Virus genome (UHGV): UHGV-0342951
Length of the DNA stretch: 61,726 nt
Direction: 5' to 3' (one strand)
Source: a virus
Part shown: positions 1-49,292 of the stretch, piece by piece
Position numbering within the stretch: the first letter of the stretch is position 1
How the letters are laid out: every line of letters begins with the position of its first letter
The notes under the pieces: model-generated
Told to the model about the DNA's origin: nothing
The model's database searches: none
Seen by the model: only the letters and a program-made list of their open reading frames with translations
Position numbers and translations under genes: made by a program

Positions 1-368
1 GAGCTTGCGTTCCAACTCGGCAATACGCTTTTCGAGTTTGTCCAGTGCTTCCTGAGAGGCAAACCCGATATGTCCGCTGCGGGCATAGTCGAGGTTGGAC
101 AGCATACGGTGGTCACTCGTGCCGGGAGGGCCGGGAGGGCCGGTAAGGCCCTGCTTGCCAGGGGAACCCGGTTCCCCCTTGGGCCCCACCTTACCGGTGT
201 TGCCAGTATTACCCTTGTCACCTTTCAGCGGGTCTCCCCACCGCAGGAGGCAAGGCGAAGAACTGTCGAAGATGAGGGCTTGTCCATCGACCCCACCGGG
301 CGGGATGCCGATGATGGGATTGACGGGGTAGCCTTCACCACAACTGTGGGGAATATTGTGCCGTGCCA
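1..368 (-). CDS. Collagen-like (Gly-X-Y) repeat tail fibre protein, N-terminal part; the 3' end lies beyond the window start
   Basis: Minus-strand translation from an ATG near 366-368 gives MARHNIPHSCGEGYPVNPIIGIPPGGVDG...GDKGNTGNTGKVGPKGEPGSPGKQGLTGPPGPPGTSDH...LDKLEKRIAELERKL (Gly-X-Y triplets then a coiled coil). It starts 1-2 nt after the stop of the upstream minus-strand gene. It is absent from the ORF track because it is open at the window edge. Confidence 0.5.
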
Positions 369-369
369 T

Positions 370-960
370 TTAGACCTCTTCGTCACAGGTCCCAAGCATG
401 AATTGTACCTGGGCCATGTCGATAATGTGTTCACTGCATCGAGGACCATAGTCTATATCGAACCGCGCCAGAACGCAAAACAGCGGCACGGGCGGCATAT
501 GCGCCGGAGAATGAATACTCAGGTCGGGAACGCAAGGAGAATCGGCAGGACGTGGCGCATCGCGCAGGTCACGAAGAACACGGAAGTCGAGCGGCTTGTC
601 GAGTGCCGGATGATACTGCAACACACCTGTGTAGCGTCCCCAAGGCAGTGTGCGGAATACATCGGGAACATGGAATTCCACCGTGCCGTCTTCTCCCCAG
701 GTGAATGCCCTGCATACGATGGGGGCGAAGTCAGGCGGTGCAGGATTCGCCACATCGACATCGACGCGATGACCCGGCCAGCAGCCGTGAAGATACCACG
801 GACTTCCGCCGGTGTGACAGCCGCAGGTGCAATCGCTGTCAACCTGTCCGGGCATGATTGTCAGTATGACATTGCGCCAGTCCTGTAAGATGCGATTGTT
901 GCGCCAGTCTTTGATGCGGATGCCGATACGGGCGACATCCTCGGTGAGCGACAGAATCAT
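370..960 (-). CDS. Hypothetical tail-associated protein (196 aa)
   Basis: ORF in the track; same orientation and tight packing with the flanking late genes. The overlapping plus ORF 70..888 is judged antisense. Confidence 0.5.
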   Translation of the reverse strand: MILSLTEDVARIGIRIKDWRNNRILQDWRNVILTIMPGQVDSDCTCGCHTGGSPWYLHGCWPGHRVDVDVANPAPPDFAPIVCRAFTWGEDGTVEFHVPDVFRTLPWGRYTGVLQYHPALDKPLDFRVLRDLRDAPRPADSPCVPDLSIHSPAHMPPVPLFCVLARFDIDYGPRCSEHIIDMAQVQFMLGTCDEEV

Positions 961-961
961 C

Positions 962-3900
962 CTAACCCCTTGTCCTGTAATAGTTCAACGAGTTCACGGC
1001 TGCATCGTATATGTTCGTGGATGAAAGTTCAAGGTTGGCGAACGCCGTTCGCAGTTCTTCCGAGTCTTCCATCGAGAGCCACCTGTCCTTGTATTCCTTG
1101 TTGAAGTCCATGCCGTTCTTCCGCAACGCTTTGTCGGTTTCCCAGATGAGCATATAGTCGGAAATCTCTTCCGAGGTGAAACCGATTTTTTCGAGCTGGG
1201 CCTGACGATAGGCTCTGGCGTCGACGCTGCGGTCAGGTGACGTTATCTTCACACCGGAACGTCGGATGCGGGATTCATATTCATCCTTGGCGTTGTAGTA
1301 CAAAATCTGGCTCGACTTCCCGGCATTCCCAAACCATGTGGATGTACCAAGTCCACGCAGCAGCGGGTGCATGTCACGGAATTCGGACATGCTCTGCGAC
1401 CCTTTGTAGAGGGCTTCGTTCTCGACAGCACCCATGACCATGCGCAGAGGACCGGTGAGGATACTCTTCGCCATGTAGCGCAGTTGTTCAGGAGCGAAGT
1501 CGATGCCGGTCTCGCTGTTGAGGCGTTTCGCCATGTTGTGCCAGATGACCGGGGTATTCGTTCGGCCCGTAGACGACAGCGCCGTCGTACCCTGGGAAGA
1601 CTCGCGGGTTATCTCTTGCCCGAAATACGACCGGTTGATGGCAACATCGACAAAGGGGCGCAGGGGCGGCGGGCAGAGAAACGCTGCCAGATAATCGGCA
1701 GGATGTTCCGTGAAGCGATAGTCGGGCCAGTTGCCCGGCATAGTGTTCTTGACCGTGAGGAACAGCGTATCGAAGGCCAGGTCTTGCGGAGACATGAGAC
1801 CGCTCGCCACACGTTCCTGACCAACGGACAGCATGGCCGCTATCTGCGGCAGACCAAAACCGACAGGGAAGCGGACGAAGTCTCCCTCAGACCCCATGCC
1901 GATGGGTATGCCGCGCACCAGCTCGGACAGCGACATGGCATCCATACGATACTTGCCATTCTCATCCCGGCCAAGGGATTCCCGGGCCAGCGGGTACAAC
2001 ATGGAATACGCCCCGTAGGCAGCCAGCAGGCCCATGTATCCACGCATCCCCTGTTTGATGATGTCACCTGGGGTACGCGCACCGAGACCCAAGGTGCGGG
2101 CCAGGGCCACACCAGACTCCACAGTGGGGACGACATAGGGAAACAGGACGCGAAGATACGGCGTCAGTTCACCACGATGGCTCAGGTTCATCATTTCCAG
2201 CACGCCACGGGCCGCACGACTTGCCGGTACTCCGGCTTCGCGCAGGGTGACGAACTGGGCAAAAGCACCCGCATTCTGGAAGAAGTCGTTCCAGTCATCC
2301 AGTACACGCATGACTTGGTTCTTCGACGTGCCGAGACTTCTCAGCCAGCGTGCTACGCTGGGGCCCCCATAACCGACGATGGCCTTCTCCAGCCGGGAAG
2401 AAGCATCCGGCAGTCCAGAGATGGTCCCGGATTCTTCGACCGGAGAACGCTGTCCCTGGATGTATTTCTGGAACAGACCGCCGCGACGGTATTCATCCAG
2501 ATATTGGTATATGGGATTCGCTTCGTCGAGCCTGCCCTGCATGATGTCCAGCAAGGCTTTGGATGTCCTCGGCGTGTTCGCCAGCACTTTCGCTGCCAGA
2601 GAGCTGCCTTTGATGCGAGTGCCGTCTTCAGCATAATAGTCACGATTCACCATGTTGGATGCACGTTCCATCACATCGCGAGAACCGGACAACGGAGCGA
2701 ATAGAGGCGAGAACCGCGTATTGAGCTGGCTGACAAGACTGGTGAAACGCCCGGCAGCTTCGACCGGCAACCCGGCGCTGCCAAGCTTGTAATCACTGGA
2801 CATGGCATTGTTGAGCATTTCACCGGTGAGACCGGATTCCACATGGGACCACTTGGGGTCGAAGCGAAGGTAACGCCTTTTGATAACAGTCTCACCGTCA
2901 GCAATAGGCGTAGGTACATCTGCCACGATACCACCCCCGGTAAGGAGCTGGTCAGCGATGGCGCGCTGCTTGGGGTTCGTGCTGTGAGACATCCGCATGA
3001 GGGAGGCGTAGTCGTAGGTCTTGATACCAGAAGCGTCGATAGCGCCGGTCTCCAGTAGATGGTCAGCAACGGCGAACATGTTCACAGCAAACTCACGGGA
3101 ACCGACTTCGGTCGCCGCCCGGTTGATATAGAAGAACAGCGTGTCATACGCGCTGTCAGGACGGGACGACCGACCCTGGATGGCGTAGTACGACCCGGGG
3201 TTGTATGCCGTGCTGTCGTTCGATACACCGAGCAGGTTGCTTTCACGGGTTCTGATAGCGACGTAATGCTCGAACCCGGGGAAGCTGTCCAACACTTCTC
3301 GCGAGACGACACCAGCCTTGACGCGCTCTTCCAGCACCATGTCGAAAAGACCGGAGATACCATCAGCGATGGTGTCGGCTTCTTCTTTGGAAAGACCGGT
3401 CTCTCGCAGGATGCGGTCCATCTCGAACTGCGCCTCTCCGTTGGTATAACCTGCGGACACGAGGTCTTCGGGGAGGTCGGTAGTTTCGTCGATGAAGTCT
3501 TCGAGCTGTTCGATGTTGCGCTCCAGCTCCATCAGACGCTTCTTGTCCCTGCCGTTCATATCAGGGCCCTTGCTCACGATGTCTTCAGCTTCATCCATCC
3601 AGCGCCCGAGCAGCAAATCGTTGGTCTCCGGGATGTGCCTGCACACAGCGTAGTGGCCCATAACACGAGCAAGGTCTTCCAGGCTGCCCGTCCAACCTAT
3701 ACGACGGGCAACAGGTTCGAGCGATTGTGTGAAGCTCGCGACACGGTCGCGCATGAGCAGATTCAGTGCGCGTACTTTCTGAGGCGTCTGGTCAAAGATG
3801 CGCCAGAGAGTGTTCTCGTTCGTCGGGCGGTTGGCCTGGTCAGCAAAGAGTCTGGCCCACTTGGCGAAGCCACCGCGAATGTTCACGAACTTCGTGTAGA

Positions 3901-4303
3901 TACCATTCTGGAAGTTCAACCACCACGAGGCAGCACCAAGACTGGTGTTCGTCGCCATGCGAACGGCTTCATCGAATTCTTCGTTACGCCTGGACACGGC
4001 TTCATCAACCAGTTCTTTCATGCGCGCCATGCGGGCGGCTGCTTTGCGAGCAGCCGCCTGGTCGGAAGCGCTGGGTTCTTCCGCCGTGTATTGGGTAACA
4101 CGAGAAAGCTCATCGAAAGACGCATAGATGTCTTCACGTTCACGCTGCTCTCGTGCCGCATGGAGTGCTTCATCGCCAGCAGGGTTTCCTGCACTATCCA
4201 TACGGGAAGCCTGCTGCGGGCCGAAACCCGTGGGGTTATCAAGTCCGGCCCGCAGGAACTCGGTATCGTTGGGACATTCAGCCATGTCTGTTATCCTCAG
4301 CAC
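962..4303 (-). CDS. Large virion protein (1113 aa), function unknown; possibly an ejection or internal virion protein
   Basis: Long uninterrupted ORF that overlaps the upstream 1221-aa gene by 7 nt (operon-like). No catalytic motif recognised. Confidence 0.7.
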   Translation of the reverse strand: MLRITDMAECPNDTEFLRAGLDNPTGFGPQQASRMDSAGNPAGDEALHAAREQREREDIYASFDELSRVTQYTAEEPSASDQAAARKAAARMARMKELVDEAVSRRNEEFDEAVRMATNTSLGAASWWLNFQNGIYTKFVNIRGGFAKWARLFADQANRPTNENTLWRIFDQTPQKVRALNLLMRDRVASFTQSLEPVARRIGWTGSLEDLARVMGHYAVCRHIPETNDLLLGRWMDEAEDIVSKGPDMNGRDKKRLMELERNIEQLEDFIDETTDLPEDLVSAGYTNGEAQFEMDRILRETGLSKEEADTIADGISGLFDMVLEERVKAGVVSREVLDSFPGFEHYVAIRTRESNLLGVSNDSTAYNPGSYYAIQGRSSRPDSAYDTLFFYINRAATEVGSREFAVNMFAVADHLLETGAIDASGIKTYDYASLMRMSHSTNPKQRAIADQLLTGGGIVADVPTPIADGETVIKRRYLRFDPKWSHVESGLTGEMLNNAMSSDYKLGSAGLPVEAAGRFTSLVSQLNTRFSPLFAPLSGSRDVMERASNMVNRDYYAEDGTRIKGSSLAAKVLANTPRTSKALLDIMQGRLDEANPIYQYLDEYRRGGLFQKYIQGQRSPVEESGTISGLPDASSRLEKAIVGYGGPSVARWLRSLGTSKNQVMRVLDDWNDFFQNAGAFAQFVTLREAGVPASRAARGVLEMMNLSHRGELTPYLRVLFPYVVPTVESGVALARTLGLGARTPGDIIKQGMRGYMGLLAAYGAYSMLYPLARESLGRDENGKYRMDAMSLSELVRGIPIGMGSEGDFVRFPVGFGLPQIAAMLSVGQERVASGLMSPQDLAFDTLFLTVKNTMPGNWPDYRFTEHPADYLAAFLCPPPLRPFVDVAINRSYFGQEITRESSQGTTALSSTGRTNTPVIWHNMAKRLNSETGIDFAPEQLRYMAKSILTGPLRMVMGAVENEALYKGSQSMSEFRDMHPLLRGLGTSTWFGNAGKSSQILYYNAKDEYESRIRRSGVKITSPDRSVDARAYRQAQLEKIGFTSEEISDYMLIWETDKALRKNGMDFNKEYKDRWLSMEDSEELRTAFANLELSSTNIYDAAVNSLNYYRTRG

Positions 4304-7300
4304 TTCCGTGCGCGTTTGGTGACTTTCTTGACAGCTTCAGCCGTGGTCAGGGAACTGTCTGTCTTGTTGACATTGAAGCCCAGGTCATGTGCCATGGACT
4401 TCCAGTTGGACTGGATGTCGGCAAAGTCCCGCGTGTCGATGGACGGCAGGTCTGCATTTTTACGCAGATAGTTGAGGGCCTGGACTTCTTTGTCTGTCAG
4501 CTTGAGCCTGGGATTCGCTTCCTTGGTCAACAGGCGCAGGACTTTGCCGTACCCCATGTTGATGTCGAGCTTGGGAGAGTTGAAGGCGTCTTGCATGACC
4601 TGCTCAGGGATTTCACGGATAAAATCAGTGATGTCTCCCAGAGATACGGGGTCAGCTTCCAGCGCTTCCAGATTGGCGGCTTCCTTGGCGGCCACGGCCT
4701 GCGCTTTCTCTGCTCGCTGCATGGCGTCCAGGATACCGGCTTGCGCCGCTTCCTTCGGGTACTGCTCGATAAGCGGTTGGAGAGCATCGCGGGCTTCCTT
4801 CGTCGTCGAAGCATTCAGAGCCTTCGATGCCTGCGTGAAATAATCGGGAACCGGAGGTGTCTCGATGGTCCCCAATACCGCATCCAAGTCATCATTGATG
4901 TAAGGAGATTCACCTCCGCGCTGTCTGGCGTACCATCCTAACGTGGATGTCCCTGTAGAATGTCTGTCACCATGACGATGTATCGGAGCAGCTTTGGATA
5001 TAGCATAGAACTTCTCCGCGTCGCCTAGAGAATCCAGCAGAGCTTTACCCAACATCAGGTCGTCGAAGAGCGCAGCACTGGAGGTAGCGTTCAAATCTAC
5101 CCGGGAGAAATCCAGCTTTCCGTAAGGATTTACTCGGTCCCTGCCGGGAGCCGCAGCCCTGGAGCGTTTGTTGCTGCCAGTGTTTGCTGCATCCCCACCA
5201 TCGCTCTTCCCTGCGCTTCGCGCAGTCCGAGGGCTTCCTGCGCTCTCACCTGTTGTTGCAGGCTGCGCGGCTGCATCGCCAACACTTCGTTCTCCGTCGG
5301 CTGGCGCGGCTTTTCGAGCCCTCTTGCGGACAACAACTCCCGCATCCGGCGCAACCGTTCCGGCAATCTGTGCCGGGGTCCCATCATTCCCTCGTTTTGC
5401 AACCGGCGAACCGCCATCAACAGCTTGTGCAAGAGCGGCAGGGGCAACGGTTCCAGCATCGGGCGCGGCACCGGGTTCCCTTGCAACAGCAGCAGCAACA
5501 CTTTCTGCAACAGGTCGGTTCGTTGCGTTTTGTCCATCATTTCCCACGACGGCAGCTTGTTTGCTTCGGCTGCCTCTTTTACCGGGTCGTGTCGGTTTTG
5601 CACCATTGGTGGTGTCCTCCTGGGAAAGTTCTGCGGCCAGTTTGGCAGCACTGTCTCGCAGCGTATTCGGCCCAAGCTGCTGCTCGAACCAGGGAGAAAG
5701 CTCCGCATAGTTGGCGGGGTTCAGCTCATCAATACGGGCCCAGACCTGCACGCGTTCAGGTTCCGTCAGACTGTTTCCGAACCGTCCGACATAGTCCTGG
5801 ATAGCCTTGATGTCGGCATTGGGGAGGAAATCCTTCAATGTCTGACGGGCAGGCTCGGCCACGGGCTGCTGCACAGGTTCGGCCACAGGCTGCTGCACAG
5901 GTTCGGCCACAGGCTGCTGCTGCACAGGTTCGGCCACAGGCTGCTGCTGCACAGGTTCGGCCACGGGCTGCTGCACAGTCTCTGCCACAGGCTCGGCTAC
6001 AGGTTCGGCTTCGGTCTGACGTACCTTCGCAGGTGCGGGTTGTCCCGTTGCATTGGGGGGTTCAGCAGCGACATGATCGGGCGTGATGAGACGGTCGTTG
6101 AAAAGGTCGCTGAGGTATGTTTCATCATTGAGGCGCTTCGCCACTTCCTGAACGATTTGACGTTCGCGCCGCGACTTGAAAATATTGTTGAAGCCCGGCA
6201 ACGAGATGCGGCTGTTGACTTCGGTCCTGAGCTGTTCAACAGACATACCGGTGAATTTCAACAGACCGTTGATGTAGTCTCCGATATAGAGGTCGTTGCG
6301 GAATTTTGCACTGGCCTTTGCGTCAGCCTTGTCATTGGGGTGTACTGTGGCGAAGTTGTCCGCAGGCGCACTCTTGTCGGTGAACATCGCTCGAAGCATA
6401 CTTGCAACATCATCGCTGATGCCGATGTAACGCTTGTTGCGCCCCGTGTAAGGTTTGAACGCGGACGAACCCGCCGTCTGCGCTGCGGAGGCGTTTGCCG
6501 CTTCGGCGGCATTGGAGACAACCGCACCATCAGAACCCGACGGACCGATGGGTTCGACAGGGGATGCGACAGAATCCGCAGCATCGGCAGGAGGCTGCGT
6601 TGTGTCCGTCGTCCGTTCGACGGAACGCCGTGCTGTGGCCGGAGCGGCATTGAACGGGGCGAACGGCACGCCGGTCACAGCACCGGCGAGAGCCGCATCC
6701 ATGACGTACTCGGACAAGGGCGTATCAAGACCCGTAGTCTGGTTGAAGACCATGTTCTCACCGAACTGCTGCCCGGCATTCATCATGGCGCCTTCAAGCA
6801 TGGAAGCAGGAAGGGCACGCACCGAACGGGCCAAAAGCCCCTGCGATGCGGCATCCGTACCTGCGTTAGCCAGCCGTTGCATGGCGCCACCGCCGATACC
6901 TCGCTGGGCCAAAGCAGCCGCACCACGAGAGATAGGCGCCAAGGCGCTGCGGGCGAAGACGCCACCAGGAAGCGCATTCGCAGCAAACCCGGTCAGACCG
7001 GCACTGGCAGAGCCCGCCTCGATAGCCTGCGTCTGCTGCTGGTCACTGAGGTTCTGGTCATTCACCACACGTCGCGTGTAGCTCCCGACACCCGTCGGGA
7101 CACCAGCGAGACCGCCAAGAACAGCACCACCCACAGCCCCGCCAAGGGCCCCGGGAAGACCAAGTGCGGCGCCCAGAGCACTACCAGTCTTGGCGCCGAC
7201 GACAGCACCAGCAAGACCGGCGCCAAGGTCGCCGATGGTATCGGCCATAGTATCGAGAGGATTGGTAACGACATGCGTGAGCGTACCAAGACGGCCTTCA

Positions 7301-19021: not shown

Positions 19022-20041
19022 TTATCCGGCGGCTCGCAGTTCTTTCAACCGCACGCGGTATTCATCCGGGGAAATCCGCCGCATTTGGTATAGGCTGTTG
19101 AGTTCAGCCAGGGTAAAAGTGGGTTTATTGACAGAAGAAGTTGCCGGAGTACCGGTCCCACCCGCCACCTGCACAGGCGGCACAGTGGTGACTTTGCCAT
19201 TATCAGGACGGTTCTGTTTGAACTTGTCCACAATGTCGATGACGTACCGCGTATTGCCAGCATAGAACTCCTGCGTGGCAGCCTGGTCACGACTCCGGCT
19301 GCTCAGCCCGTCGGGTTCCTGGAGGTAACGCAGGAAATCCGGGTCATTGAACAGATTGTAGAAATCAGGATGCACTTGCAGGATTTCACTAGCATAACGG
19401 GTTATCTGCGCCTGCTGCGTGGCATTGAGCGCCTCAGCCCGATTACGTTCGATAGTCTCGCGCTGGGCTTTCACCTCAGCCACCACGCCCTCGAGCGGCT
19501 GTTGCAGCATACGCGCCGTCATAACGGCAATACGACGGGCGTCGGCAGGGTCAACCGTCTCCAGCGCATTCAACTCATCGGCACCGTCGAGACTGGCCAG
19601 CATGGCCTGCTGCTTGTTGGCGGCTTCAAACTCGGCGTTACGCTTCTGCGCCTCGGCCAACTGGTTAGCGAGAACATCACGTTCCTGCGCGAGCTGCTGC
19701 ATCTGTTGTTGCTGCGCCATGTACATGTACGGGGCAATAGACGGCTGCTGCACATGCTGCTGCACCGGCTGCTGCACCGGCTGCTGCACCGGCTGCTGCA
19801 CCGGCTGCTGCACAGGCTGCTGCACAGGCTGCTGCACCGGCTGCTGCACCGGCTGCTGCACAGGCTGCTGCACAGGCTGCTGCACAGGCTGCTGCACAGG
19901 CTGCTGCACAGGCTGCTGCTCCATAGCCGCTTCTGTCCGGGCATATTGGTCACGAAAAACCTGTGCCATACCCGGAGTACGGGCAAAGGCGGGAGAGACG
20001 GAAGTGTTGCCGTCGCCGGATGCCATAGGGTTAGTGGACAT
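19022..20041 (-). CDS. Scaffold-like coiled-coil protein with a (QQPV)n repeat; start moved to MSTNPMASGD
   Basis: Contains about 20 tandem QQPV units followed by a long helical Gln/Ala/Glu-rich region. The upstream part of the ORF in the track overlaps the neighbouring small gene. Confidence 0.5.
   Translation of the reverse strand: MSTNPMASGDGNTSVSPAFARTPGMAQVFRDQYARTEAAMEQQPVQQPVQQPVQQPVQQPVQQPVQQPVQQPVQQPVQQPVQQPVQQPVQQPVQQHVQQPSIAPYMYMAQQQQMQQLAQERDVLANQLAEAQKRNAEFEAANKQQAMLASLDGADELNALETVDPADARRIAVMTARMLQQPLEGVVAEVKAQRETIERNRAEALNATQQAQITRYASEILQVHPDFYNLFNDPDFLRYLQEPDGLSSRSRDQAATQEFYAGNTRYVIDIVDKFKQNRPDNGKVTTVPPVQVAGGTGTPATSSVNKPTFTLAELNSLYQMRRISPDEYRVRLKELRAAG
19741..19920 (-). repeat. 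About 15 tandem copies of a 12-nt unit (CGGCTGCTGCAC on the plus strand) encoding (QQPV)n
   Basis: Seen directly. Related 12-36-nt units occur at 5857..5975, 48870..48970, 56690..56880 and 58378..58460. Confidence 0.8.
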
Positions 20042-20052
20042 AGTGCTTTCTC

Positions 20053-20334
20053 CTACTTGATGTACTGTTTCAAGGTAGTTACGACATCCTGGAGCATCAG
20101 TACACGCCCCAGCGCCATACACCCGGAACCTTGCTTTTGTCCGTCGAGCAAAGCTGCCCGCGCCAAAGCGTCACATTCCTGGGCTTCTTTTTTCGCCGCC
20201 GACTCGAACAACCCAATCAAGGACAACAAGGCCCCCCGATTCGACGCGAGCGTCGCCAAAAGGTTGTCGCCTGCGGTCTTGTCGCCCTTAACTGCCAGAA
20301 GACGGGACATACCGCAGCCCACTGATAGTATCAC
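20053..20334 (-). CDS. Hypothetical small protein (93 aa)
   Basis: ORF in the track; an alternative overlapping ORF 20331..20684 exists. Confidence 0.35.
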   Translation of the reverse strand: MILSVGCGMSRLLAVKGDKTAGDNLLATLASNRGALLSLIGLFESAAKKEAQECDALARAALLDGQKQGSGCMALGRVLMLQDVVTTLKQYIK

Positions 20335-21824: not shown

Positions 21825-23804
21825 TCAGGCTTCACCTCCTGTGATGTCAGCCGTAACACCAGCACCAGTGGGCGAAGGCGGCGCCGGATTGGGAGCAGAC
21901 CCAGCTCCCGGCATGACCCCCATCGGTGACATCTGCTCCATCTGGCCCAGAACATTGTCGGGAACACCCATAGTACCAAGCAGGGTCTTGAGGCTCCAGG
22001 AGATTACAGGGGCCAGATTGACCGCCTGACCGAGCGCACCGGCTGCGGCACCGACAGTCTGAAGAATCTCCATGGCCGACTGCTTTTCCATCTCCTTCTT
22101 GAGCAGCCCTTCAGCTCCCTTCGTGATGATATGGCTGTCGCCTTTGACCTCCATGTCTTTGGCAAACAACATGTTGGTATTATACAGCAATTCCCCAAGC
22201 GGCTTGAAGACACCGTAGGCGATGTTGTCTGCTGCCGCATGGAGGGCCTTAGTGGCATTGCCTTGCAGCATGGACATGCCACGGAACGTGCGCATGGCCC
22301 CGGAACCAACAGCCTCACCATGGAGTGCCGCAGGGATATTGGTGACACGGTCAGCAAGCTGCATGAACATTTCCATGAGCTGTGCATACGCCGGGATATT
22401 GGAAGGGATATTCGTAAAGCGGAACGCGGGCATATTGTTGTTGCCCAGGTCAGAGTCGGACAAGTAAAGACTCCCGGGCACTATCTGCCCGAGCTCACCC
22501 TTGCCGATATACGACGCGATGCGCCTGTAGTCTGCTTCACAGATAGGCGCCGAAGCATTGGCCGCATTGCGCATGAGGTACATAAGGCTCGCCATGTAAG
22601 CACGTTCGATGTCGCGCAAACGCTGGGCGATACCATCACCGGCAATACGGTCTCCGCCAGTACGATAAAAACTCGCGGTATATACCGGGCGCGTCTGTAT
22701 CTTGGGGTCGGAGAAGACCCTCACCTCGATGACGCGCCCCTGGACCAACGAAATCTGGCAGTTGTAGAAGTCACCATCATCGAGGCCCTGGATGTCATAT
22801 TTTTGCAGTTCCCTGCCAGACATGAGCCCGTAGTGGGTCAGGACCTCGATAGGGCTCACGTTAGAAGACCACAACGCCATATTGCGCTGTCCTTCATCCG
22901 GGGGCCGAGACAACCAGCTCAGGTTGAAGTCTACATTGGGGTCGTCAGCCTGCTTCAAAATGTCCTTGATGTTGGCCGCGATGTAACCGTCGAGCTTGGA
23001 GGCATTCAACAACTCGCGCCGTGTCCAACGGGTACGAGTAAAAATACATGTCCCACGCTGCGTATCAGGACTGTCAGGACTGTAGGCAAAGTCGAAGGGA
23101 CTTATGGCGCGGAATGTCGGAAAGACTTCCGTATCAATACGCGGCTTATTCTTGCCCCACACGAGACGCGGGGCCCGCGTGATATAGGGGCCAGCGAAAA
23201 CCGCAAAAGGATAGATGGGGAACCATTGCAAAAAGTCGGTGAGAGCCCGATTGAAGCCGCCTTCGGCACACTGGTCAGCCAGCAGCATCATCATGGCGTC
23301 GGCAGATTTCTTTGCCTTTTCCGTTTCTTTGAAATGCATCTCACGCTTCTGCTGCCGGATAGCTTCGATGAGCTGGGATGCGTCTTCAAAACTGCCGCTC
23401 TGGAGCTGTGCTTTTATCTCGTTGAAAATTTCATCCTGCGCCACAGGAGAAATATCAGGACGCGGCGTAGGTATCACGGTCCAGGGGAGCGAAGCATCCC
23501 CGGAACTGGTCATGGCGTCATTGAGATAGGAATTGGCGATGTCGGCTTTCAAAGCGGTCAGGTTGATGTAGGCATCGACACCCAGAGCTTCCGCTCGCTC
23601 CTTCGTATCACACGACATGATACCATTCTGCTGGTTCCAGCAGTTCTCAAGTACGGTGCGAAGAGGCTTGCCATTCACAAGCTCAGTAGACTGCCACGAC
23701 ACAGCGCCATTGAACCTGTCCATGACGGCCTCGGCCAGCGGGTCGTGGGATTTCTCCTTCACGTCCTCGATTTCCAGCATCCAGTTGATAGCGTCGCTCA
23801 TCAA
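21825..23804 (-). CDS. Portal protein candidate (about 655 aa)
   Basis: Large ORF directly downstream of the terminase and IscB genes, in the canonical portal position. Its first in-frame ATG overlaps the iscB stop (TGATG). Assigned by size and position only. Confidence 0.5.
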   Translation of the reverse strand: MMSDAINWMLEIEDVKEKSHDPLAEAVMDRFNGAVSWQSTELVNGKPLRTVLENCWNQQNGIMSCDTKERAEALGVDAYINLTALKADIANSYLNDAMTSSGDASLPWTVIPTPRPDISPVAQDEIFNEIKAQLQSGSFEDASQLIEAIRQQKREMHFKETEKAKKSADAMMMLLADQCAEGGFNRALTDFLQWFPIYPFAVFAGPYITRAPRLVWGKNKPRIDTEVFPTFRAISPFDFAYSPDSPDTQRGTCIFTRTRWTRRELLNASKLDGYIAANIKDILKQADDPNVDFNLSWLSRPPDEGQRNMALWSSNVSPIEVLTHYGLMSGRELQKYDIQGLDDGDFYNCQISLVQGRVIEVRVFSDPKIQTRPVYTASFYRTGGDRIAGDGIAQRLRDIERAYMASLMYLMRNAANASAPICEADYRRIASYIGKGELGQIVPGSLYLSDSDLGNNNMPAFRFTNIPSNIPAYAQLMEMFMQLADRVTNIPAALHGEAVGSGAMRTFRGMSMLQGNATKALHAAADNIAYGVFKPLGELLYNTNMLFAKDMEVKGDSHIITKGAEGLLKKEMEKQSAMEILQTVGAAAGALGQAVNLAPVISWSLKTLLGTMGVPDNVLGQMEQMSPMGVMPGAGSAPNPAPPSPTGAGVTADITGGEA

Positions 23805-25069
23805 AAATCGGCGCGGAGACCCCTGCCTTCAGGCAGGGGAGGAAGCGCCGCCTCCTTTCTGAGTTCGGTTAAATAGGTCCTGCGTCTTTCGTGCAGGCGA
23901 AGCTTTTTGAAGCTGATGCCTGCTGATATCCGCGTTCCGTCAAGCTTTCGCACGTCGAAGCTGCCCGTTGATCGACGGCCGAAGATGAAGGCCGTCTCGC
24001 CCTTGCAGGCGACTTTGTCGAAAAGACGAAAGCCCTTCACTTCGTACGGCGCCTGATTGCGCTTGCGAACGCCGCCTTTCAAGATCGAAAGCTTGTGAAT
24101 CTGCCGGTTGTGACGGCGCGTCTGCTTTTGGTAGTAGAAACTGCCGAGCCGATCGGCCTTGAGGTTTCCGGCGATGCAGAAGGCGTCGGCGCAATGAGAT
24201 TTCGCAATCCCGTGCTCGATGCGCGCATGCTTCGTCAGATAGCCGTAGGTATTGCGCACTTCCAGTTCCGGATGCGCCGCCTTCAGTCGATCGAGCACCT
24301 TCCATCGCATGATGCCCATGAAGGCTTCGGCTCTGAACGACGCGCCGCGCTTGATGCTGAGCTTGATCTCGCCGCGGTGAAGCGCCTTGTGGCACGTCTC
24401 GCAGAGCGTGATCAGATTGCCTGGCGAATCGCCGCCGGTGCGCCTGGATTCCAGATGGTGAACGTTGAGCACCGGATCCTTCGACCTGCCGCCGCAGTGC
24501 CGGCAGACATGCCCGTCTCTGAAGAGCACGTATTCGCGGACATTCCAAAAGCCGAGCTGTTCGCCCTGCTGATAGCCTTTTCCGGAAATGTCGGGATTCT
24601 TCAGAAGCTGCATGTCGAAGGATGCCGTTTCGACAGTGATCTTCGTTACGGGAAGAATCCGCAGAACCGCCTCTATGCGCGAAAGATGCGCAGCGATGCG
24701 GTTTTCCACCGACGGGGCAAGCCAGCCTTTGCGCTTGCTGCGGACGCGGTTGTCGAACCGCGGCGCGCGATAGCGCGTTTTGCGGCTGCGGCGTGCGCGC
24801 CGCAAGGCAAGACGGGCTGACAGCAGATCGGTGATGTCCTGCCGGAGTTCGATCTCGGACGCATAGAGTTCGGCCTTTTCCGTCGAAGCGGAAAGACCGA
24901 CATGCTTGTAACCGGCATCAACGCCGAGGCTCACCGGCTGCTTCGATTCGCCGCCGGCAGTCGTGAGCCGAATGGTGAAGGGCGTCTGCCTCGCCACTGC
25001 TGCTTTCTTCTCTTTCAGGAGAATGCGCGCCTTTGCCGCCGAACACGGCATCAGGGGCTTCCCCCGCAT
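23801..25069 (-). CDS. iscB: IscB (OMEGA system RNA-guided nuclease, IS200/IS605-associated): PLMP - RuvC-I - bridge helix - RuvC-II - HNH - RuvC-III
   Basis: N-terminal MRGKPLMPCSAAKARILLKE matches the PLMP motif. LGVDAGYKHVGLSA is RuvC-I, followed by an Arg-rich stretch RRARRSRKTRYRAPRFDNR (bridge helix). The HNH is CRHCGG...VHHLESRRTGGDSPGNLITLCETCHKALH. SHCADAFCIAGN is RuvC-III-like. The ORF in the track begins 21 nt upstream at a TTG. Confidence 0.85.
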   Translation of the reverse strand: MRGKPLMPCSAAKARILLKEKKAAVARQTPFTIRLTTAGGESKQPVSLGVDAGYKHVGLSASTEKAELYASEIELRQDITDLLSARLALRRARRSRKTRYRAPRFDNRVRSKRKGWLAPSVENRIAAHLSRIEAVLRILPVTKITVETASFDMQLLKNPDISGKGYQQGEQLGFWNVREYVLFRDGHVCRHCGGRSKDPVLNVHHLESRRTGGDSPGNLITLCETCHKALHRGEIKLSIKRGASFRAEAFMGIMRWKVLDRLKAAHPELEVRNTYGYLTKHARIEHGIAKSHCADAFCIAGNLKADRLGSFYYQKQTRRHNRQIHKLSILKGGVRKRNQAPYEVKGFRLFDKVACKGETAFIFGRRSTGSFDVRKLDGTRISAGISFKKLRLHERRRTYLTELRKEAALPPLPEGRGLRADF

Positions 25070-25360
25070 GTTCAAAACAAATACTCTCAAGTTTTGTCCC
25101 CTCGGCCCGAAGGCCGGTAATGATCCTTCGCCAATGTTGGAAGGGGTTTCCTGCCGGCGGCACCGCTCCTACCTCTCAGAGCTTTTAACCGCCGACCGCA
25201 GAGCGCGGAACTAGGATCTACATTCCGCGGTGCCTGTGCATTCCCAACCAACGTAGTCCGCATTCCTGCGGACTGAGGCTAGTCAACCAGAGGCTTTCCA
25301 CAAGCCTCGGCCTTCAGGCCGGGGTAGTTGACAACTTTCTCCCTATCAAATCACTCGCCT
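25070..25360 (-). ncRNA. Candidate omegaRNA (guide RNA scaffold) of the IscB element
   Basis: A 290-nt non-coding gap immediately 5' of iscB on the same strand. It is densely packed with GC hairpins (GGCCTGAAGGCC, GAGGCTTGTGGAAAGCCTC, GTCCGCAGGAATGCGGAC, CGCGGAATGTAGATCCTAGTTCCGCG, CCGGCCTTCGGGCCG). IscB omegaRNAs are encoded 5' of the ORF. Confidence 0.4.
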
Positions 25361-25371
25361 GGGCGTCAATC

Positions 25372-26880
25372 TCATACGACGCTGGACAAAGAACTGCGCC
25401 TGCGTATGAGTTCGTCCCTGACGTTTTGCATCGTGGTATCCTTATCCATATTGTCCCCACGCTGGATAAGAAGGGCCGCGTACTGGAGAGCGTCATGCAC
25501 ATGACTCGCATCATTCTTTTCCGGGCTCGGCGTGTACACAGAGCCCATCGTCCCGGAAGCCCGCAACTTGCGGTATCGGTATTCATGCGAGAACCCACGA
25601 ATGAGCATCTGACAGGCCGGGTCGATGAGCAACCCTCCGGCACGATGGTTGAGCATATGCTCCACTGTCTGGATGCGAACCCTGGGATTGTTCGTCAATT
25701 CCGTCACAGCCTTGATACCAGCGTCAGCGAAACGCTGCTTGGGCGTGACGGCCTGCCACGAATCCCGAGTATTGCTCGGGTCGATGGCAGCAACCAGAGG
25801 ATTCGTGCTGTACCGGCCCCGCAGCAGCGGTATCAGCATACCATGCAGGAAATTTTCAAACCCCTCGTTGTCAGCATACAATTCATCCAGCACACACCAG
25901 GTCCCGTTGATGTTTTGCAGGATGACCGCAGCAGGATGGATACCAGACTGGTCCACACCGATGATGATGGGCTGGAAAGGTCGCGGTTCCAACGCTTCCG
26001 ACGCCACATGGATGTTGATGTTGAAATTCGAGTAGACCGGCTTGCCGTCAACGATAGGCACGTCCATCATGCAATACTGGTTGTCGATAATGTCCGTGCG
26101 CCCGGTCTTGAGCAAGGCATCTATCTGGTTACGGTAATACCGCATACCTTGCTGTTCGGGCGTGAAATCGTCCGGGTCCCCTTCTTCTCTGGCACCCAGA
26201 TTGCGCAAATTCTCGGCGTCCGGGTTCACCTCATACGTCACGACACCAGTGACTTCATCAACGTGCTTGAAGGCAGCGGGAGGCTGCCTGAACACTGCCC
26301 AGTTGGGTTGCGGGTTGTGGATGTACTCATCGAGCCAGGAGCCAGGTTCAGGCTGGTTGAAGTCCATGATGGTTCCGCCCCATGAAATACCGCCGAGGTC
26401 CTGGGACGGGTAACGCCCGATACGTCCCGTGACAGCGTTATACACTTCGGGCGAGCAACCCGTGGCTTCATTGAGCCAGGCAAACGTCCAGTTGGCAGAC
26501 CGCAGCTTGGGGGCATCATCAGCCGTCTTGAGGGCCCACAACTCCAGTTCAAGAGAGACCTTGGTACCATCAGGCAGCGGAATGAAATAGAACCCGCGCA
26601 CAGGAGCACCAGAACTGGCAATCGTACCATATTCAGCGGGCAGCAGTTCGATAAGCGACCTGCGCGTGGTGGCGATGAGTTCGGGATAAGACGAACGCAC
26701 GACCCCGACACGGACATATCGTACACCGTCTGGAGCAGGATTCTGGGCACACGCACACGTCAGCACATCTGCAACACAGGCACACGATTTCCCTGACCCA
26801 TAGGGCCCGACAATCATCTTGAGATACTTGTCGCAGTTATGCAGGAGCATACCAGTAGGCGAAGGCACATAGTTGAACAT
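25372..26880 (-). CDS. terL: Terminase large subunit
   Basis: Walker A GPYGSGKS near the N-terminus and a C-terminal nuclease-type segment IIIGVDQSGIHPAAV...D. 502 aa. Followed by a portal-sized gene. Confidence 0.9.
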   Translation of the reverse strand: MFNYVPSPTGMLLHNCDKYLKMIVGPYGSGKSCACVADVLTCACAQNPAPDGVRYVRVGVVRSSYPELIATTRRSLIELLPAEYGTIASSGAPVRGFYFIPLPDGTKVSLELELWALKTADDAPKLRSANWTFAWLNEATGCSPEVYNAVTGRIGRYPSQDLGGISWGGTIMDFNQPEPGSWLDEYIHNPQPNWAVFRQPPAAFKHVDEVTGVVTYEVNPDAENLRNLGAREEGDPDDFTPEQQGMRYYRNQIDALLKTGRTDIIDNQYCMMDVPIVDGKPVYSNFNINIHVASEALEPRPFQPIIIGVDQSGIHPAAVILQNINGTWCVLDELYADNEGFENFLHGMLIPLLRGRYSTNPLVAAIDPSNTRDSWQAVTPKQRFADAGIKAVTELTNNPRVRIQTVEHMLNHRAGGLLIDPACQMLIRGFSHEYRYRKLRASGTMGSVYTPSPEKNDASHVHDALQYAALLIQRGDNMDKDTTMQNVRDELIRRRSSLSSVV

Positions 26881-27541: not shown

Positions 27542-28195
27542 TTACGCAGTAAAACGAACGAGGGCCGACACATAGGACTGAGTCGTCATACCGGTGACAG
27601 CCAGTTTCACAGCCTTGCCTTTGAGTGCACCAAGTGTCTGCGGAGAGTCATTCAGCGTGATGGGGTTGGCCCCGGATTCCGTACTCAACACGATACTGAC
27701 ACCACTCGTTCCGGCACCATCGGCTTCGATATAGCTGAGAGTGGCATTGTTCCAGTCACTCGCAAGGACTGTGTGGATGACTTCGTCAGGGAAGGCAAAA
27801 TACAGCGGGAGGACGACAAAAGCGGAAGGCATATGTGCAGCCAGCCACTCCTGGTCGACCTGAATCACGCCCTCTTCGGTAATGGTGATACCTTCCCCAG
27901 CAGTCAGCGACCCACCGAGGACATCTTCAAGAGCCGTAAGGTCGATTTCCACTGCGATGGAATCGCCCTGCAAAGGAGCCTCTGCTCCGTCATTGAACGT
28001 GAGTATACCCCCCGTGCTCTTGAGCAGAAACTTATCGGGAACCGTGGGGTGTCCGCCAGCAGTCGAACCGTCATGGACGACCACGACATGCTTATCGGTG
28101 TCGACGGTGAGCTCACCGGGGAGGCCCTTGTATGTTTTGTGCTGGGCAGTCGTCCCCCTGAACTGCTGGATAGGACTGGAGTTGTTTCTCGCCAT
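27542..28195 (-). CDS. Short tail fibre paralogue (217 aa) sharing its N-terminal about 50 aa with the adjacent 452-aa fibre
   Basis: MARNNSSPIQQFRGTTAQHKTYKGLPGELTVDTDKHVVVVHDGSTAGG aligns with MARKTPDAIQQYRGTTAQHAAYTGKIGELTVDTDKKVVVVHDGVTAGG of the neighbouring gene. The C-termini are unrelated. Confidence 0.6.
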   Translation of the reverse strand: MARNNSSPIQQFRGTTAQHKTYKGLPGELTVDTDKHVVVVHDGSTAGGHPTVPDKFLLKSTGGILTFNDGAEAPLQGDSIAVEIDLTALEDVLGGSLTAGEGITITEEGVIQVDQEWLAAHMPSAFVVLPLYFAFPDEVIHTVLASDWNNATLSYIEADGAGTSGVSIVLSTESGANPITLNDSPQTLGALKGKAVKLAVTGMTTQSYVSALVRFTA

Positions 28196-28311: not shown

Positions 28312-29670
28312 TTAGGCGTCCATGGTGCCGTAGTCGGAATAGACCATCAGCTTGCCATTGTCGCACTGAATCTGATTGCCGGGGGTCTCGGAAATCATGG
28401 AGCAGCCCAGAGAACCTTCAGCGTTGCCGACCATATCGTTGACGATATTCTCGACCGGGGTCTTGAGGTCATTTTCAGTCAGCAGCGCACCCTTGTCAGT
28501 ACCGGTCTTGATGACATTACTGGCATCAGCAGACACGACCTTCACGGACAGCTTGCCGTCGGCACCTTCCTTGAGGGCGTTGTTCGTGTCAGTGGAGACC
28601 GTATTGGTGAAGTCCACCACGATGTTGCCGCTTTCGTCGAACTTGATACCGGTGCCCAGCTTGGCCGAGATGGTATGACCGTTGATGGTGATACCCTGAC
28701 CGGCGGTGTACACATCGATGAGTTCGGTGACATCCACATAGGTGTCAACCACGCTGTTGTCGGACAGCGCCCAGATGAAGTGCAGGTAAGTACCGGCCTT
28801 CAGACCCACCCGGGGCGTGAAAGAGACAGTGCCGCTGATGGTCGTACCAGCCACATTGAACGTGACGGAAGCCGTGGAATTGTCATCGAAGGTCACACGG
28901 GCCGGGCTGGTACGGTCTTCGACCGTTTTATCGTCGCCGTTGAACACGGCACGCACGGCAGCGACGGACGTACCGCCGGTGAGCATTTCAGTGCTGAAGG
29001 CAGCCGTACCGGCGGTACCCTTGGTGGTCTCGACCAGGACGCCGACAGCCTTGGCCCAGTTGCCAGCCTGGTCACGGAACATCAGGGACAGGCGGTAGTC
29101 ACCCTCCACAGCCTCACCGGCGGCATCGGGTTTGCCATGCACCAGTTCGACACCCTTGAGCACGGAAGTGCTGGACGGGACGGTCACGGTAGCAACTTCG
29201 GTAACACCGTCATGGCCGATGATTTTGAGCTCGCCGGAATACGGGTGGTAGGTCATGCTGAGGTCGGCGGCAACCTTGCCGTCGGCATCATGCAGAATCT
29301 TGTCGCCTGCGCGGATGATGAGATCGGCGTCAGGAGCCTTGGCATACAGCTTGTCATCAGTACCCACGGACAGACCGTTGTTGGCGTCGGTGGACACCAA
29401 GTCGGTAGCCAGGGAAGTCATGTCCACAGTGAGCGCCACATCGCCAGCGAGAGTGCCCTCGGTGGAGCCGTTCACTTTCAGGTGGGTGTCACCAGTGACC
29501 TTGCGGTCTTCACGCGCCATGGGCACGCCACCGGCGGTAACGCCGTCATGGACGACCACGACCTTCTTGTCGGTATCGACGGTGAGTTCGCCGATTTTGC
29601 CCGTGTACGCAGCATGCTGGGCAGTAGTACCACGATACTGCTGGATAGCGTCAGGAGTTTTTCGAGCCAT
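28312..29670 (-). CDS. Tail fibre protein (452 aa)
   Basis: Conserved fibre N-terminal module (see paralogue), then Thr/Val/Gly-rich repeats with recurring D-x-N-N-G-L motifs. Confidence 0.65.
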   Translation of the reverse strand: MARKTPDAIQQYRGTTAQHAAYTGKIGELTVDTDKKVVVVHDGVTAGGVPMAREDRKVTGDTHLKVNGSTEGTLAGDVALTVDMTSLATDLVSTDANNGLSVGTDDKLYAKAPDADLIIRAGDKILHDADGKVAADLSMTYHPYSGELKIIGHDGVTEVATVTVPSSTSVLKGVELVHGKPDAAGEAVEGDYRLSLMFRDQAGNWAKAVGVLVETTKGTAGTAAFSTEMLTGGTSVAAVRAVFNGDDKTVEDRTSPARVTFDDNSTASVTFNVAGTTISGTVSFTPRVGLKAGTYLHFIWALSDNSVVDTYVDVTELIDVYTAGQGITINGHTISAKLGTGIKFDESGNIVVDFTNTVSTDTNNALKEGADGKLSVKVVSADASNVIKTGTDKGALLTENDLKTPVENIVNDMVGNAEGSLGCSMISETPGNQIQCDNGKLMVYSDYGTMDA

Positions 29671-38905: not shown

Positions 38906-38993
38906 GTTTCAATCCGCACGACCCCTATCCGCCGACTGACTCCGCAGCCGACGGATAGGGGTCGTGCGGATTGCCCCTCCCTAAAGGGAGAGG
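38906..38993 (-). repeat. 87-bp composite element, copy 1 (minus sense): CCTCCCT hairpin, 22-bp arm and a type I-C-like 35-mer that together form a perfect long palindrome
   Basis: Minus strand reads CCTCTCCCTTTAGGGAGGGG-CAATCCGCACGACCCCTATCCG-tcggctgcggagtcagt-CGGATAGGGGTCGTGCGGATTG-AAAC. The first 46 nt after the hairpin are identical to those in copy 2. Confidence 0.55.
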
Positions 38994-48674: not shown

Positions 48675-49292
48675 ATGAGTATCCAAGAAGACGTACAGAA
48701 CATGCCTCCCATCGAGGTCATTCTCAAAATCATCCTTCCCAAGATGAACAACCGCATCAAGGCGCTGAACGCCGCTGTCCAGGCGCTCCAGGAAGAAGTC
48801 GAAGCGCTGAAGGCTGCGGCTCCGAAGAAGCGCGCGCCGCGCAAAAAGAAGGCCGACGACGAAGCTCCGGCTCCCGCTGCCCAGCCTGCTCCGGCTCCCG
48901 CTGCCCAACCTGCTCCGGCGCCTGTGCCCCAGCCTGCTCCGGCACCTGTGCCCCAGCCTGCTCCGGCGCCCGTGCCCCAGCCGGATACTGTGACCTATCC
49001 TGCCCCTGCGCCTTCTGCCCAGTCTACGGGTACTCTGCTGTGTACCTACGACAGCGAGCAGGATGAGTTCGTGCCGCTGAATATCGAAGGGTGGCCGCTC
49101 ACTGGTAACAACGTCGGACTCGCCTTGTATGCCATGGCTACGATGCGTAACAACATCGGCGACGCTGCGACCATGTCCAATCTGCCCGAGGGATTCATCA
49201 AGTTCGTCACCGATATGACGCCCGAGCAGCGTAAGCAGGTCAACGGCAAGTTCCCTGCGCAGAATCCCGCCTATCAGGAATACTTCGTCTAA
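48675..49292 (+). CDS. Hypothetical protein (205 aa) with a (PAPAAQ/PAPVPQ)n linker
   Basis: ORF in the track; GGAGGG RBS. Confidence 0.5.
   Translation: MSIQEDVQNMPPIEVILKIILPKMNNRIKALNAAVQALQEEVEALKAAAPKKRAPRKKKADDEAPAPAAQPAPAPAAQPAPAPVPQPAPAPVPQPAPAPVPQPDTVTYPAPAPSAQSTGTLLCTYDSEQDEFVPLNIEGWPLTGNNVGLALYAMATMRNNIGDAATMSNLPEGFIKFVTDMTPEQRKQVNGKFPAQNPAYQEYFV

Follow-up and report, generated by a model that had tools for sequence, protein, structure and literature searches.

An IscB-encoding ISC-type transposon between the terminase and portal genes of a gut podophage, a candidate for RNA-guided homing among sister phages

ISC elements that encode IscB alone were described in Proteobacteria and Cyanobacteria by Kapitonov, Makarova and Koonin (2016; PMC4810608), who found that they have 5'-GTCA ends and hairpins, insert at N/ATGA (the slash marks the junction) and generate no target duplication. 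They share their ends with elements that encode only TnpB, and Y1 transposases mobilise them in trans (PMC4810608); most ISC elements are non-autonomous. The working of such an element was described by Meers et al. (2023; PMC10055086) for the IscB of ISGst5 of Geobacillus stearothermophilus. There the RNA scaffold comes from the transposon's right end and the guide from just outside it, transcription has to come in from a gene that lies upstream and points the same way (an orientation bias is reported), IscB and the transposase TnpA read one TCAT-type motif, and IscB cuts the element-free 'donor joint'. Phages are known to carry free-standing homing endonuclease genes, such as Seg and Mob of T4 (reviewed in PMC13565253), and a TnpA-independent, TnpB-driven spread of insertion sequences (ISs) has been reported in plasmids (Mears et al. 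2025). Here we analyse an IscB transposon that lies between the large terminase gene (terL) and the portal gene of a gut phage, UHGV virus genome UHGV-0342951; the whole stretch of DNA, 61,726 nucleotides (nt), is called the window. We think it probable that this selfish element is active and able to home, guided by RNA, from phage to phage during co-infection, and that it is not a domesticated gene.

Where does the element begin and end? A scan of IMG/VR with the TerL protein as query yielded 27 related phage loci, and in all 27 portal follows terL directly and iscB is absent. Because these contigs lack the element, its ends could be fixed to the single base; the alignment of empty and occupied junctions leaves no ambiguity at either end of the 1531 bp (Table 1). 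The empty junction reads ...GGGAGAAAGTT/ATGAGCGAC..., with the portal ATG directly after GGGAGAAAGTT in the 27 relatives, and the occupied locus reads ...GAAAGTT/GTCAAC...GATTTTTG/ATGAGCGAC. For nine close relatives the empty junction is ...GATTTGATAGGGAGAAAGTT/ATGAGCGAC..., to be set beside ...GAAAGTT/GTCAACTACC...CCGATTTTTG/ATGAGCGAC... in the window. The same alignment reveals no target-site duplication.

The element has thus gone in at N/ATGA, precisely in the gap that separates the Shine-Dalgarno sequence of portal from its ATG. Its start coincides with position 1 of the HEARO model, the Rfam model of the scaffold RNA, and its end at 23802 is one base before the portal ATG. The insertion has stranded the portal Shine-Dalgarno, GGGAGA, 1.5 kb upstream, and no Shine-Dalgarno-like sequence is present in the element end within 20 nt of the portal ATG. 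The stop codon of iscB is a hybrid, in which TG comes from the element and A from the portal ATG (23801 is a target base). On the terL side, the non-coding stretch of about 281 nt consists of 242 nt of element and 39 nt of the original terL-portal spacer, the latter supplying the guide.

A first-pass annotation, made by a model from the letters alone, had recognised an IscB/OMEGA element and a candidate omegaRNA, inserted with precision between terL and portal; it had also proposed a comparison with relatives lacking the insertion. That comparison, over the 27 loci, is what defined the ends at 23802 and 25332, and together with the NCBIfam and HEARO scores given below it bears out the placement. 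The TGATG overlap of the iscB stop with the portal ATG, also seen in the first pass, is real. Two further suggestions fell away: a right IS end within the 5' region of portal is ruled out by the empty-site alignment, and a TTAC-like target by the ATGA or ATGG found at every junction. The flanking genes are well identified. The 502-amino-acid (aa) open reading frame (ORF) upstream is TerL, with 30-33% identity to annotated TerL proteins of proteobacterial phages (tblastn), and the 658-aa ORF downstream matches a portal/connector PHROG (2.5e-29). When the 5-kb region was compared with GenBank phages by megablast, the one match was to an unannotated 'Bacteriophage sp.'; it covered the iscB part, at 75% identity, and was of no use for setting the element boundaries.

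The product of the element is, to judge by its sequence, a catalytically intact IscB, a predicted RNA-guided nuclease of double-stranded DNA that depends on a target-adjacent motif (TAM). Within the iscB ORF, Pfam finds RRXRR over the full model (1.2e-60) and HNH (1.3e-7), and the NCBIfam model NF040563, guided_IscB ('RNA-guided endonuclease IscB'), gives 342 bits, where 175 is the cutoff. Among solved structures the OgeuIscB entries of the PDB match best, with E values of 4e-39 for the sequence by itself and 7e-48 for a profile of the family. The catalytic set, in the numbering of the 429-aa protein, comprises D58 (RuvC-I), E154 (RuvC-II), H211/H212 (HNH) and H299/D302 (RuvC-III), which align with D61, E193, H246/H247, H340 and D343 of OgeuIscB and are invariant or nearly so among 15 homologues. 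GKPLMP of the PLMP region and LGVD58AG likewise align with OgeuIscB, as do the arginine-rich bridge helix, RRARRSRKTRYRAPRF, with the OgeuIscB bridge-helix segment, and NVH211H212 of the HNH inserted in RuvC with H246/H247. Pfam, NCBIfam and the OgeuIscB alignment therefore uphold the PLMP, split RuvC, bridge helix and HNH architecture read in the first pass.

The start codon assigned in the first pass, ATG at 25069, needs revision. The ORF is open back to TTG at 25090, which is probably the true start: the N-terminus read from TTG, MRVFVLNMRGKPLMP, aligns with the N-terminus of OgeuIscB, and we prefer TTG because RVFVLNMRGKPLMP so aligns, because GAGGGG lies 7 nt upstream, because homologues are called at 429 aa, and because the related element of contig L141 (below) keeps the TTG. 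Exact-protein look-ups of the 429-aa IscB, of a 422-aa IscB and of P0004 returned no match, and that of P0005 succeeded; the failures arise because gene callers set M14 as the start.

The omegaRNA is represented by a full-length HEARO match on the iscB strand, ending 27 nt before the TTG, and the upstream non-coding stretch has a fold z-score of -5.6. The first pass had taken some 290 nt of non-coding sequence for a candidate omegaRNA; the RNA is there, and only 242 of the roughly 281 nt are element-derived. From the 5' end of the scaffold (25332) to the iscB start is 242 nt, and Meers et al. give this same value, 242 bp, as the mean interval between omegaRNA 5' end and ORF; they note that RF02033 lacks the downstream structural elements (PMC10055086). 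In the window such a downstream hairpin follows the HEARO match (Table 1), and its counterpart in L141 is CGGUC-GAAA-GACCG, that is, with compensatory changes.

Directly 5' of the scaffold lies the predicted guide, to which we assign 16 nt, a length presumably the same here as in characterised IscB systems. It contains the displaced portal Shine-Dalgarno GGGAGA. Among about 50 family copies the sequence to the left of GTCAAY is unrelated, as for a flank-derived guide. The guide sequence occurs once in the window, where it is adjoined by GTCA. The search for guide matches in other phages, another check proposed in the first pass, found the guide match followed by an intact ATGA in seven element-free sister phages of IMG/VR; in the occupied copy this arrangement is disrupted. 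The homing role that the first-pass annotation had thought plausible is strengthened by this pairing of an intact target in the empty phages with GTCA in the occupied one.

Table 1. Coordinates of the transposon, its parts and the adjoining genes (window positions unless a contig is named)
Feature	Position	Strand	Basis or remark
Whole transposon, ISC2/IS200-IS605 family, non-autonomous	23802..25332	-	base-exact comparison with element-free sister phages
iscB coding sequence, 429 aa, TTG start, stop TGA	23801..25090	-	Pfam, NCBIfam and PDB matches
omegaRNA scaffold, Rfam HEARO RF02033	25117..25332	-	cmscan 141 bits (gathering score 83), E 9e-31, model positions 1-211
omegaRNA 3' extension: hairpin CGGCC-UUCG-GGCCG (25103..25116), then iscB ribosome-binding site GAGGGG	25091..25116	-	
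Predicted 16-nt guide TGATAGGGAGAAAGTT	25333..25348	-	directly 5' of HEARO model position 1; flank-derived
Target and putative TAM ATGA, the portal ATG plus A (TCAT on transposon top strand)	23798..23801	-	right-flank comparison
Subterminal hairpin, transposon left end, CCCCTGCC-TTCA-GGCAGGGG, 18 nt from tip	23820..23839	+	DNA fold
Subterminal hairpin, transposon right end, CCTCGGCC-TTCA-GGCCGGGG, 8 nt from tip ...TAGTTGAC	25305..25324	+	read from sequence
Portal gene	21825..23801	-	ATG overlaps iscB stop (TGATG), 1531 bp from its own Shine-Dalgarno
terL (large terminase)	25372..26880	-	upstream of element, same orientation; tblastn to annotated TerL
TnpB gene (OrfB_IS605 and Cas12f1-like TNB)	L050 5342..6466	-	flank hairpin 6496..6541

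The termini agree with those of a known family. The hairpins of the two ends have a TTCA loop and a GCC/GGC stem core in common, and the right-end hairpin is complementary to the omegaRNA hairpin that comes first when the HEARO model is aligned. All of about 50 family copies begin with GTCAAY. Across about 65 copies the right flank is ATGA or ATGG, the latter confined to one Sutterella subgroup, and ATGA flanks the window element, the copies in contigs L028, L050 and L144, and most chromosomal copies. A tblastn probe for TnpA found no match in the 61.7-kb window at E<=10, in agreement with the first pass; the probe was validated on other loci, where it found Y1_Tnp genes, one of them (L054) confirmed by Pfam. 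As there is no TnpA in cis, the element is non-autonomous. The features so far, read from sequence, place it as a non-autonomous ISC-type transposon of the IS200/IS605 superfamily, N/ATGA branch, with iscB and omegaRNA. In other respects it is an ordinary ISC/IscB transposon of a family already known.

Has the element moved recently? The same 1531 bp, 99.6% identical, is found at a different site in L028, an unrelated phage contig, where it precedes an ERF recombinase gene. A third phage, L050, carries at 3759..4454 a 696-bp internal-deletion derivative (positions 1-355 joined to 1191-1531) that keeps the omegaRNA and has a frameshifted iscB; it is followed at once by the ATG of a Mor-family activator gene, and is possibly a guide-only rider that would need IscB in trans. 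L144, a conjugative-element-like contig with conjugation genes, has an IscB 97% identical in protein sequence before a helix-turn-helix gene. Taken together, the copies in L028, L050 and L144 point to recent mobility. The nearest chromosomal copies are those of Parasutterella, Sutterella and Duodenibacillus, at 84-89% amino-acid identity and many per genome; NCBI labels these homologues IscB, and dozens of Sutterellaceae copies carry the same termini at different loci. L050 also carries a TnpB gene flanked by a left-end-type hairpin, CCCCTGCC-TGAA-GGCAGGGG, as in the ISC element, and by its sequence this gene belongs to an IS605B-type partner with a common terminus, as known for ISC families. 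We note separately that a short gut contig, L145, has two different, convergent iscB genes about 500 bp apart, at 287..1576 (+) and 2108..3439 (-).

The distribution of the element among related phages is best seen in contigs L142 and L143, a nearly identical pair from two sample accessions that has the element at the same site as the window. Between the window and these contigs the element differs at 3 of 1531 positions, all synonymous. The flanks of window and L142 differ at 106 of 1509 positions in terL and 120 of 1802 in portal, or 226 of 3311 combined (about 7%), and the disparity between element and flank divergence is strong (Fisher p 4e-34). Phages with an empty site include relatives 96-97% identical to the window. 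Empty-site phages such as L003 and L026 resemble the window more closely than L142 does, and the presence of the element therefore does not follow the phage tree. The phage genome has 564 ATGA sites, so that independent transposition into the same one is unlikely.

A further occupied allele, in L141 (ENA ORMN01002190), has a different composition. At the same terL-portal site its flank and the first ~215 nt of its omegaRNA are 100% identical to the window, and its iscB is of the Parasutterella chromosomal type, sharing 95% of its amino acids with P0014 and about 80% of its nucleotides with the window. Such a chimera suggests recombination with host copies and supports Parasutterella as host; the phage host is probably Parasutterella or another member of the Sutterellaceae. 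Among the empty alleles, two depart from the predicted target (both at ~7540-7552): the junction of L005 reads AAAGGT/ATGA, with a mismatch adjoining the TAM, and that of L007 reads GTT/ATGC, with TAM and portal codon 2 changed. These are possible resistant alleles, two being too few for interpretation.

How might the element spread? Late-operon transcription from terL would run through the 39-nt spacer into the element and yield the guide joined to the omegaRNA scaffold of about 240 nt. Such read-through is likely because terL has the same orientation, in accord with the bias seen by Meers et al., and because the minus strand of the terL-iscB interval has no sigma-70-like promoter and no terminator consensus, an absence of consensus only. 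IscB would bind the guide-omegaRNA and cleave DNA in which a guide match is followed by ATGA. The substrate would be the unoccupied terL-portal junction of a sister phage, or a copy that has lost the element by excision; the occupied copy would be immune because GTCA replaces ATGA beside the guide match. In a co-infected cell the break would be repaired from the element-bearing genome, so that the element is copied in, a form of homing or drive. Moves to new ATGA sites would need a Y1 TnpA in trans. Translation of portal would be kept by coupling, through termination and reinitiation of the iscB ribosome at UGAUG. All sequence-level parts of the Meers et al. scheme are found at the window locus. 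As for homing itself, the locus offers an empty allele with a predicted target coexisting with an occupied allele without the ATGA, and one site shared by diverged genomes with the element far less diverged than its flanks, a pattern that fits plain recombination too.

Several observations weigh against so active a part for IscB. The occupied allele is known from just four assemblies besides the window (L141, L142, L143 and one more), all gut metagenomes, and the occupied junction was found in none of the IMG/VR phages, as against seven empty junctions with guide match and ATGA. Sharing of the site, as read from the alignments, would fit homing and homologous recombination alike, and the phage group is visibly mosaic, with further 100%-identical blocks between the window and L142. 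The nearest differences in the flanks are at distances of 85 and 204 nt, at least as far off as those of phages with an empty site, and conservation of the adjoining DNA in those phages as well would hide any co-conversion tract. The TnpA probe likewise found no transposase gene beside close copies of the element. The C-terminal ~95 aa of IscB are conserved within the family, and the C-terminal 109 aa, where the TAM-interaction domain would lie, have no PDB sequence match, and an AlphaFold2 model from the 15-sequence alignment is poor overall (mean predicted local distance difference test score, pLDDT, 45.8), with residues 350-400 alone beta-rich at pLDDT of about 70-86. Guide length and TAM are assigned from the flanks and by comparison with characterised relatives, the cutting of DNA, the making of the RNA and the copying by repair are predicted steps, and portal is only probably translated by coupling.

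One might think therefore that the element is a passive passenger, which arrived once by TnpA-mediated transposition and was afterwards transferred solely by homologous recombination of terL/portal DNA, IscB playing no role in its spread. The strong mosaicism of the group, the conservation of the immediate flanks in all relatives, with no homing-specific conversion tract visible, and the rarity of occupied alleles would all be expected on this account. We nevertheless consider it unlikely, though deserving of serious attention. An idle nuclease gene is poorly matched to an intact iscB with every catalytic residue and only synonymous differences between window and L142, to a full-length omegaRNA, and to a guide and TAM that match the empty allele perfectly. 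There is also experimental precedent, in IscB cutting of donor joints and, as reported for plasmids, in TnpA-independent drive by TnpB. The opposite view, raised in the first pass, is that IscB has been domesticated within the packaging module, fixed as a weapon for competitor exclusion or for some terminase- or portal-linked function. The site is inside an essential packaging operon, the iscB stop and portal start overlap, and cutting of the empty allele would hurt competitors. A fixed gene would scarcely be missing from all 27 relatives, however, some of them 96-97% identical; the transposon ends are intact, other phages and a conjugative element carry near-identical copies at unrelated sites, and the guide is set by the insertion site alone. 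Domestication is, in our judgement, very improbable.

Some OMEGA relatives have been exapted as repressors. Might the window IscB then be a nuclease-dead, TldR-like RNA-guided regulator, or a decaying pseudogene? The guide does span the ribosome-binding region of portal, but D58, E154, H211/H212, H299 and D302 are all present, the ORF is uninterrupted, and a copy that has genuinely decayed looks different, with the internal deletion and frameshift seen in L050; we give this idea very little credence. An assembly chimera of phage and bacterial reads deserves mention since the closest chromosomal relatives are multi-copy in Sutterellaceae and such repeats can cause mis-joins. That explanation is next to negligible in view of the identical junction in assemblies of other sample accessions (L141, L142 and L143) and of junctions that are base-exact, on both sides, at a canonical N/ATGA target. 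An active selfish element capable of homing remains the reading that we favour.

Is the placement of the element between ribosome-binding site and start codon peculiar to portal? We compared 41 unique insertions with both ends, taken from the window and loci L056-L133, with all 3554 ATGA sites in the same loci. At 32 of the insertions (78%), versus 34% of all ATGA sites, the ATG starts an ORF 60 codons or longer, and a Shine-Dalgarno motif lies 3-15 nt upstream in the reconstructed empty site at 17 (41%), versus 10%. Both features are present at 15 of 41 (37%), as against 4% of all sites (binomial p 4e-11). ISC elements of the N/ATGA type thus tend to sit exactly between ribosome-binding site and start codon, a small regularity for which the literature searched, on start-codon insertion of HEARO/IscB elements, held no description. 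The preference may reflect survival under selection against disruptive insertions, because intergenic, sense-oriented ATGA sites are mostly start codons. At a TG/ATGA junction the iscB frame always reads TGA-TGA with an overlapping ATG. A bolder proposal combines TnpA-independent, RNA-guided drive among co-infecting phages ('non-restorative transposon homing') with an N/ATGA family built for the gap between Shine-Dalgarno and ATG. We offer it tentatively, and would not yet call it probable. On this proposal the UGA-UGA with overlapping AUG, which TG plus ATGA always gives, could keep essential genes downstream, portal among them, translated by coupling, so that compact operons could be invaded without polar damage.

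The genome that harbors the element encodes a family A DNA polymerase, an SNF2 helicase, a DUF927 primase-helicase, a major head protein and tail proteins, and the window is recognised as a phage genome by these genes; the phage is a gut podophage of about 62 kb. Some features of this genome lie apart from the transposon. Several ORFs have repeats with a 12-nt period that encode (QPVQ)n-type tracts (19743..19940, 5816..6040, 56691..56870 and 48906..48978), among them a scaffold-like ORF, 19022..20122 (-), that adjoins the major head gene. A 52-nt repeat at 38910..38961 and 46269..46320 matches in its outer parts and has its inner ~24 nt reverse-complemented, a hairpin with a flipped core. Two paralogous tail-protein genes, 27542..28195 (-) and 28312..29670 (-), share an N-terminal repeat of 132 nt at 73% identity (28042..28173 and 29517..29648), and their homologues in L142 are marked Mtd_N (PF18454). 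A diversity-generating retroelement near these genes was considered and rejected; the similarity is that of ordinary paralogues, with neither a template/variable repeat pair nor a reverse transcriptase.

How does the locus compare with the described systems? Like ISC2 (PMC4810608), an element of about 1.3-1.7 kb, the window transposon encodes IscB alone, a RuvC nuclease with an HNH insert, has a GTCA terminus and subterminal hairpins, lies directly 5' of ATGA with no target duplication, has a terminus type common to a TnpB-only IS605B element (seen in L050), and would be mobilised in trans by a Y1 TnpA. Unlike ISC2, it lies inside the packaging operon of a lytic-type phage genome, and the iscB ORF of its subgroup reaches the last base of the element, so that the target completes the stop codon. 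It is an IS placed with single-base precision inside an essential packaging operon, apparently without killing the phage, and the insertion is seen in several assemblies. The protein likewise resembles OgeuIscB, whose ribonucleoprotein structures (PDB 7UTN, 7XHT, 8CSZ) align with it through PLMP, RuvC-I, bridge helix, RuvC-II, HNH and RuvC-III; catalytic residues are conserved, and the omegaRNA fits the full HEARO RF02033 model. The two proteins are no more than about 35-40% identical over the aligned core, the window C-terminal ~95 aa, the presumed TAM-interaction region, have no detectable sequence similarity to OgeuIscB, and the likely TAM is ATGA as against NWRRNA.

The closest functional parallel is the ISGst5 IscB, with which the window element shares an omegaRNA scaffold derived from the right end, a guide outside the element, and a predicted dependence on read-through from upstream. 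The TAM is common to transposase and nuclease, TTCAT in ISGst5 and CTCAT in the window (top strand), and two positions set the element-internal motif beside the guide apart from the TAM, a difference that would confer self-immunity. The role demonstrated for ISGst5 differs, in that the element is restored on the sister chromosome after TnpA excision; the window has no nearby TnpA, and the targets available are other phage genomes. For OMEGA homing between phages our literature search found a theoretical mention alone (PMC13565253), and the locus is thus a natural candidate for a category that has so far been theoretical. Occupied and empty alleles coexist in the gut phage population, and guide, TAM and target can be read from sequence, so that the homing idea is directly testable. 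With T4 Seg/Mob and the TnpB-driven plasmid ISs the locus shares a nuclease gene placed in the interval between two conserved essential genes, its presence in some and absence from other close phages, with the empty allele as the predicted nuclease target, and an element much less diverged than its flanks. Unlike Seg and Mob, the window element would recognise its target by an RNA guide and a 4-nt motif, not by protein, and it keeps its transposon ends.

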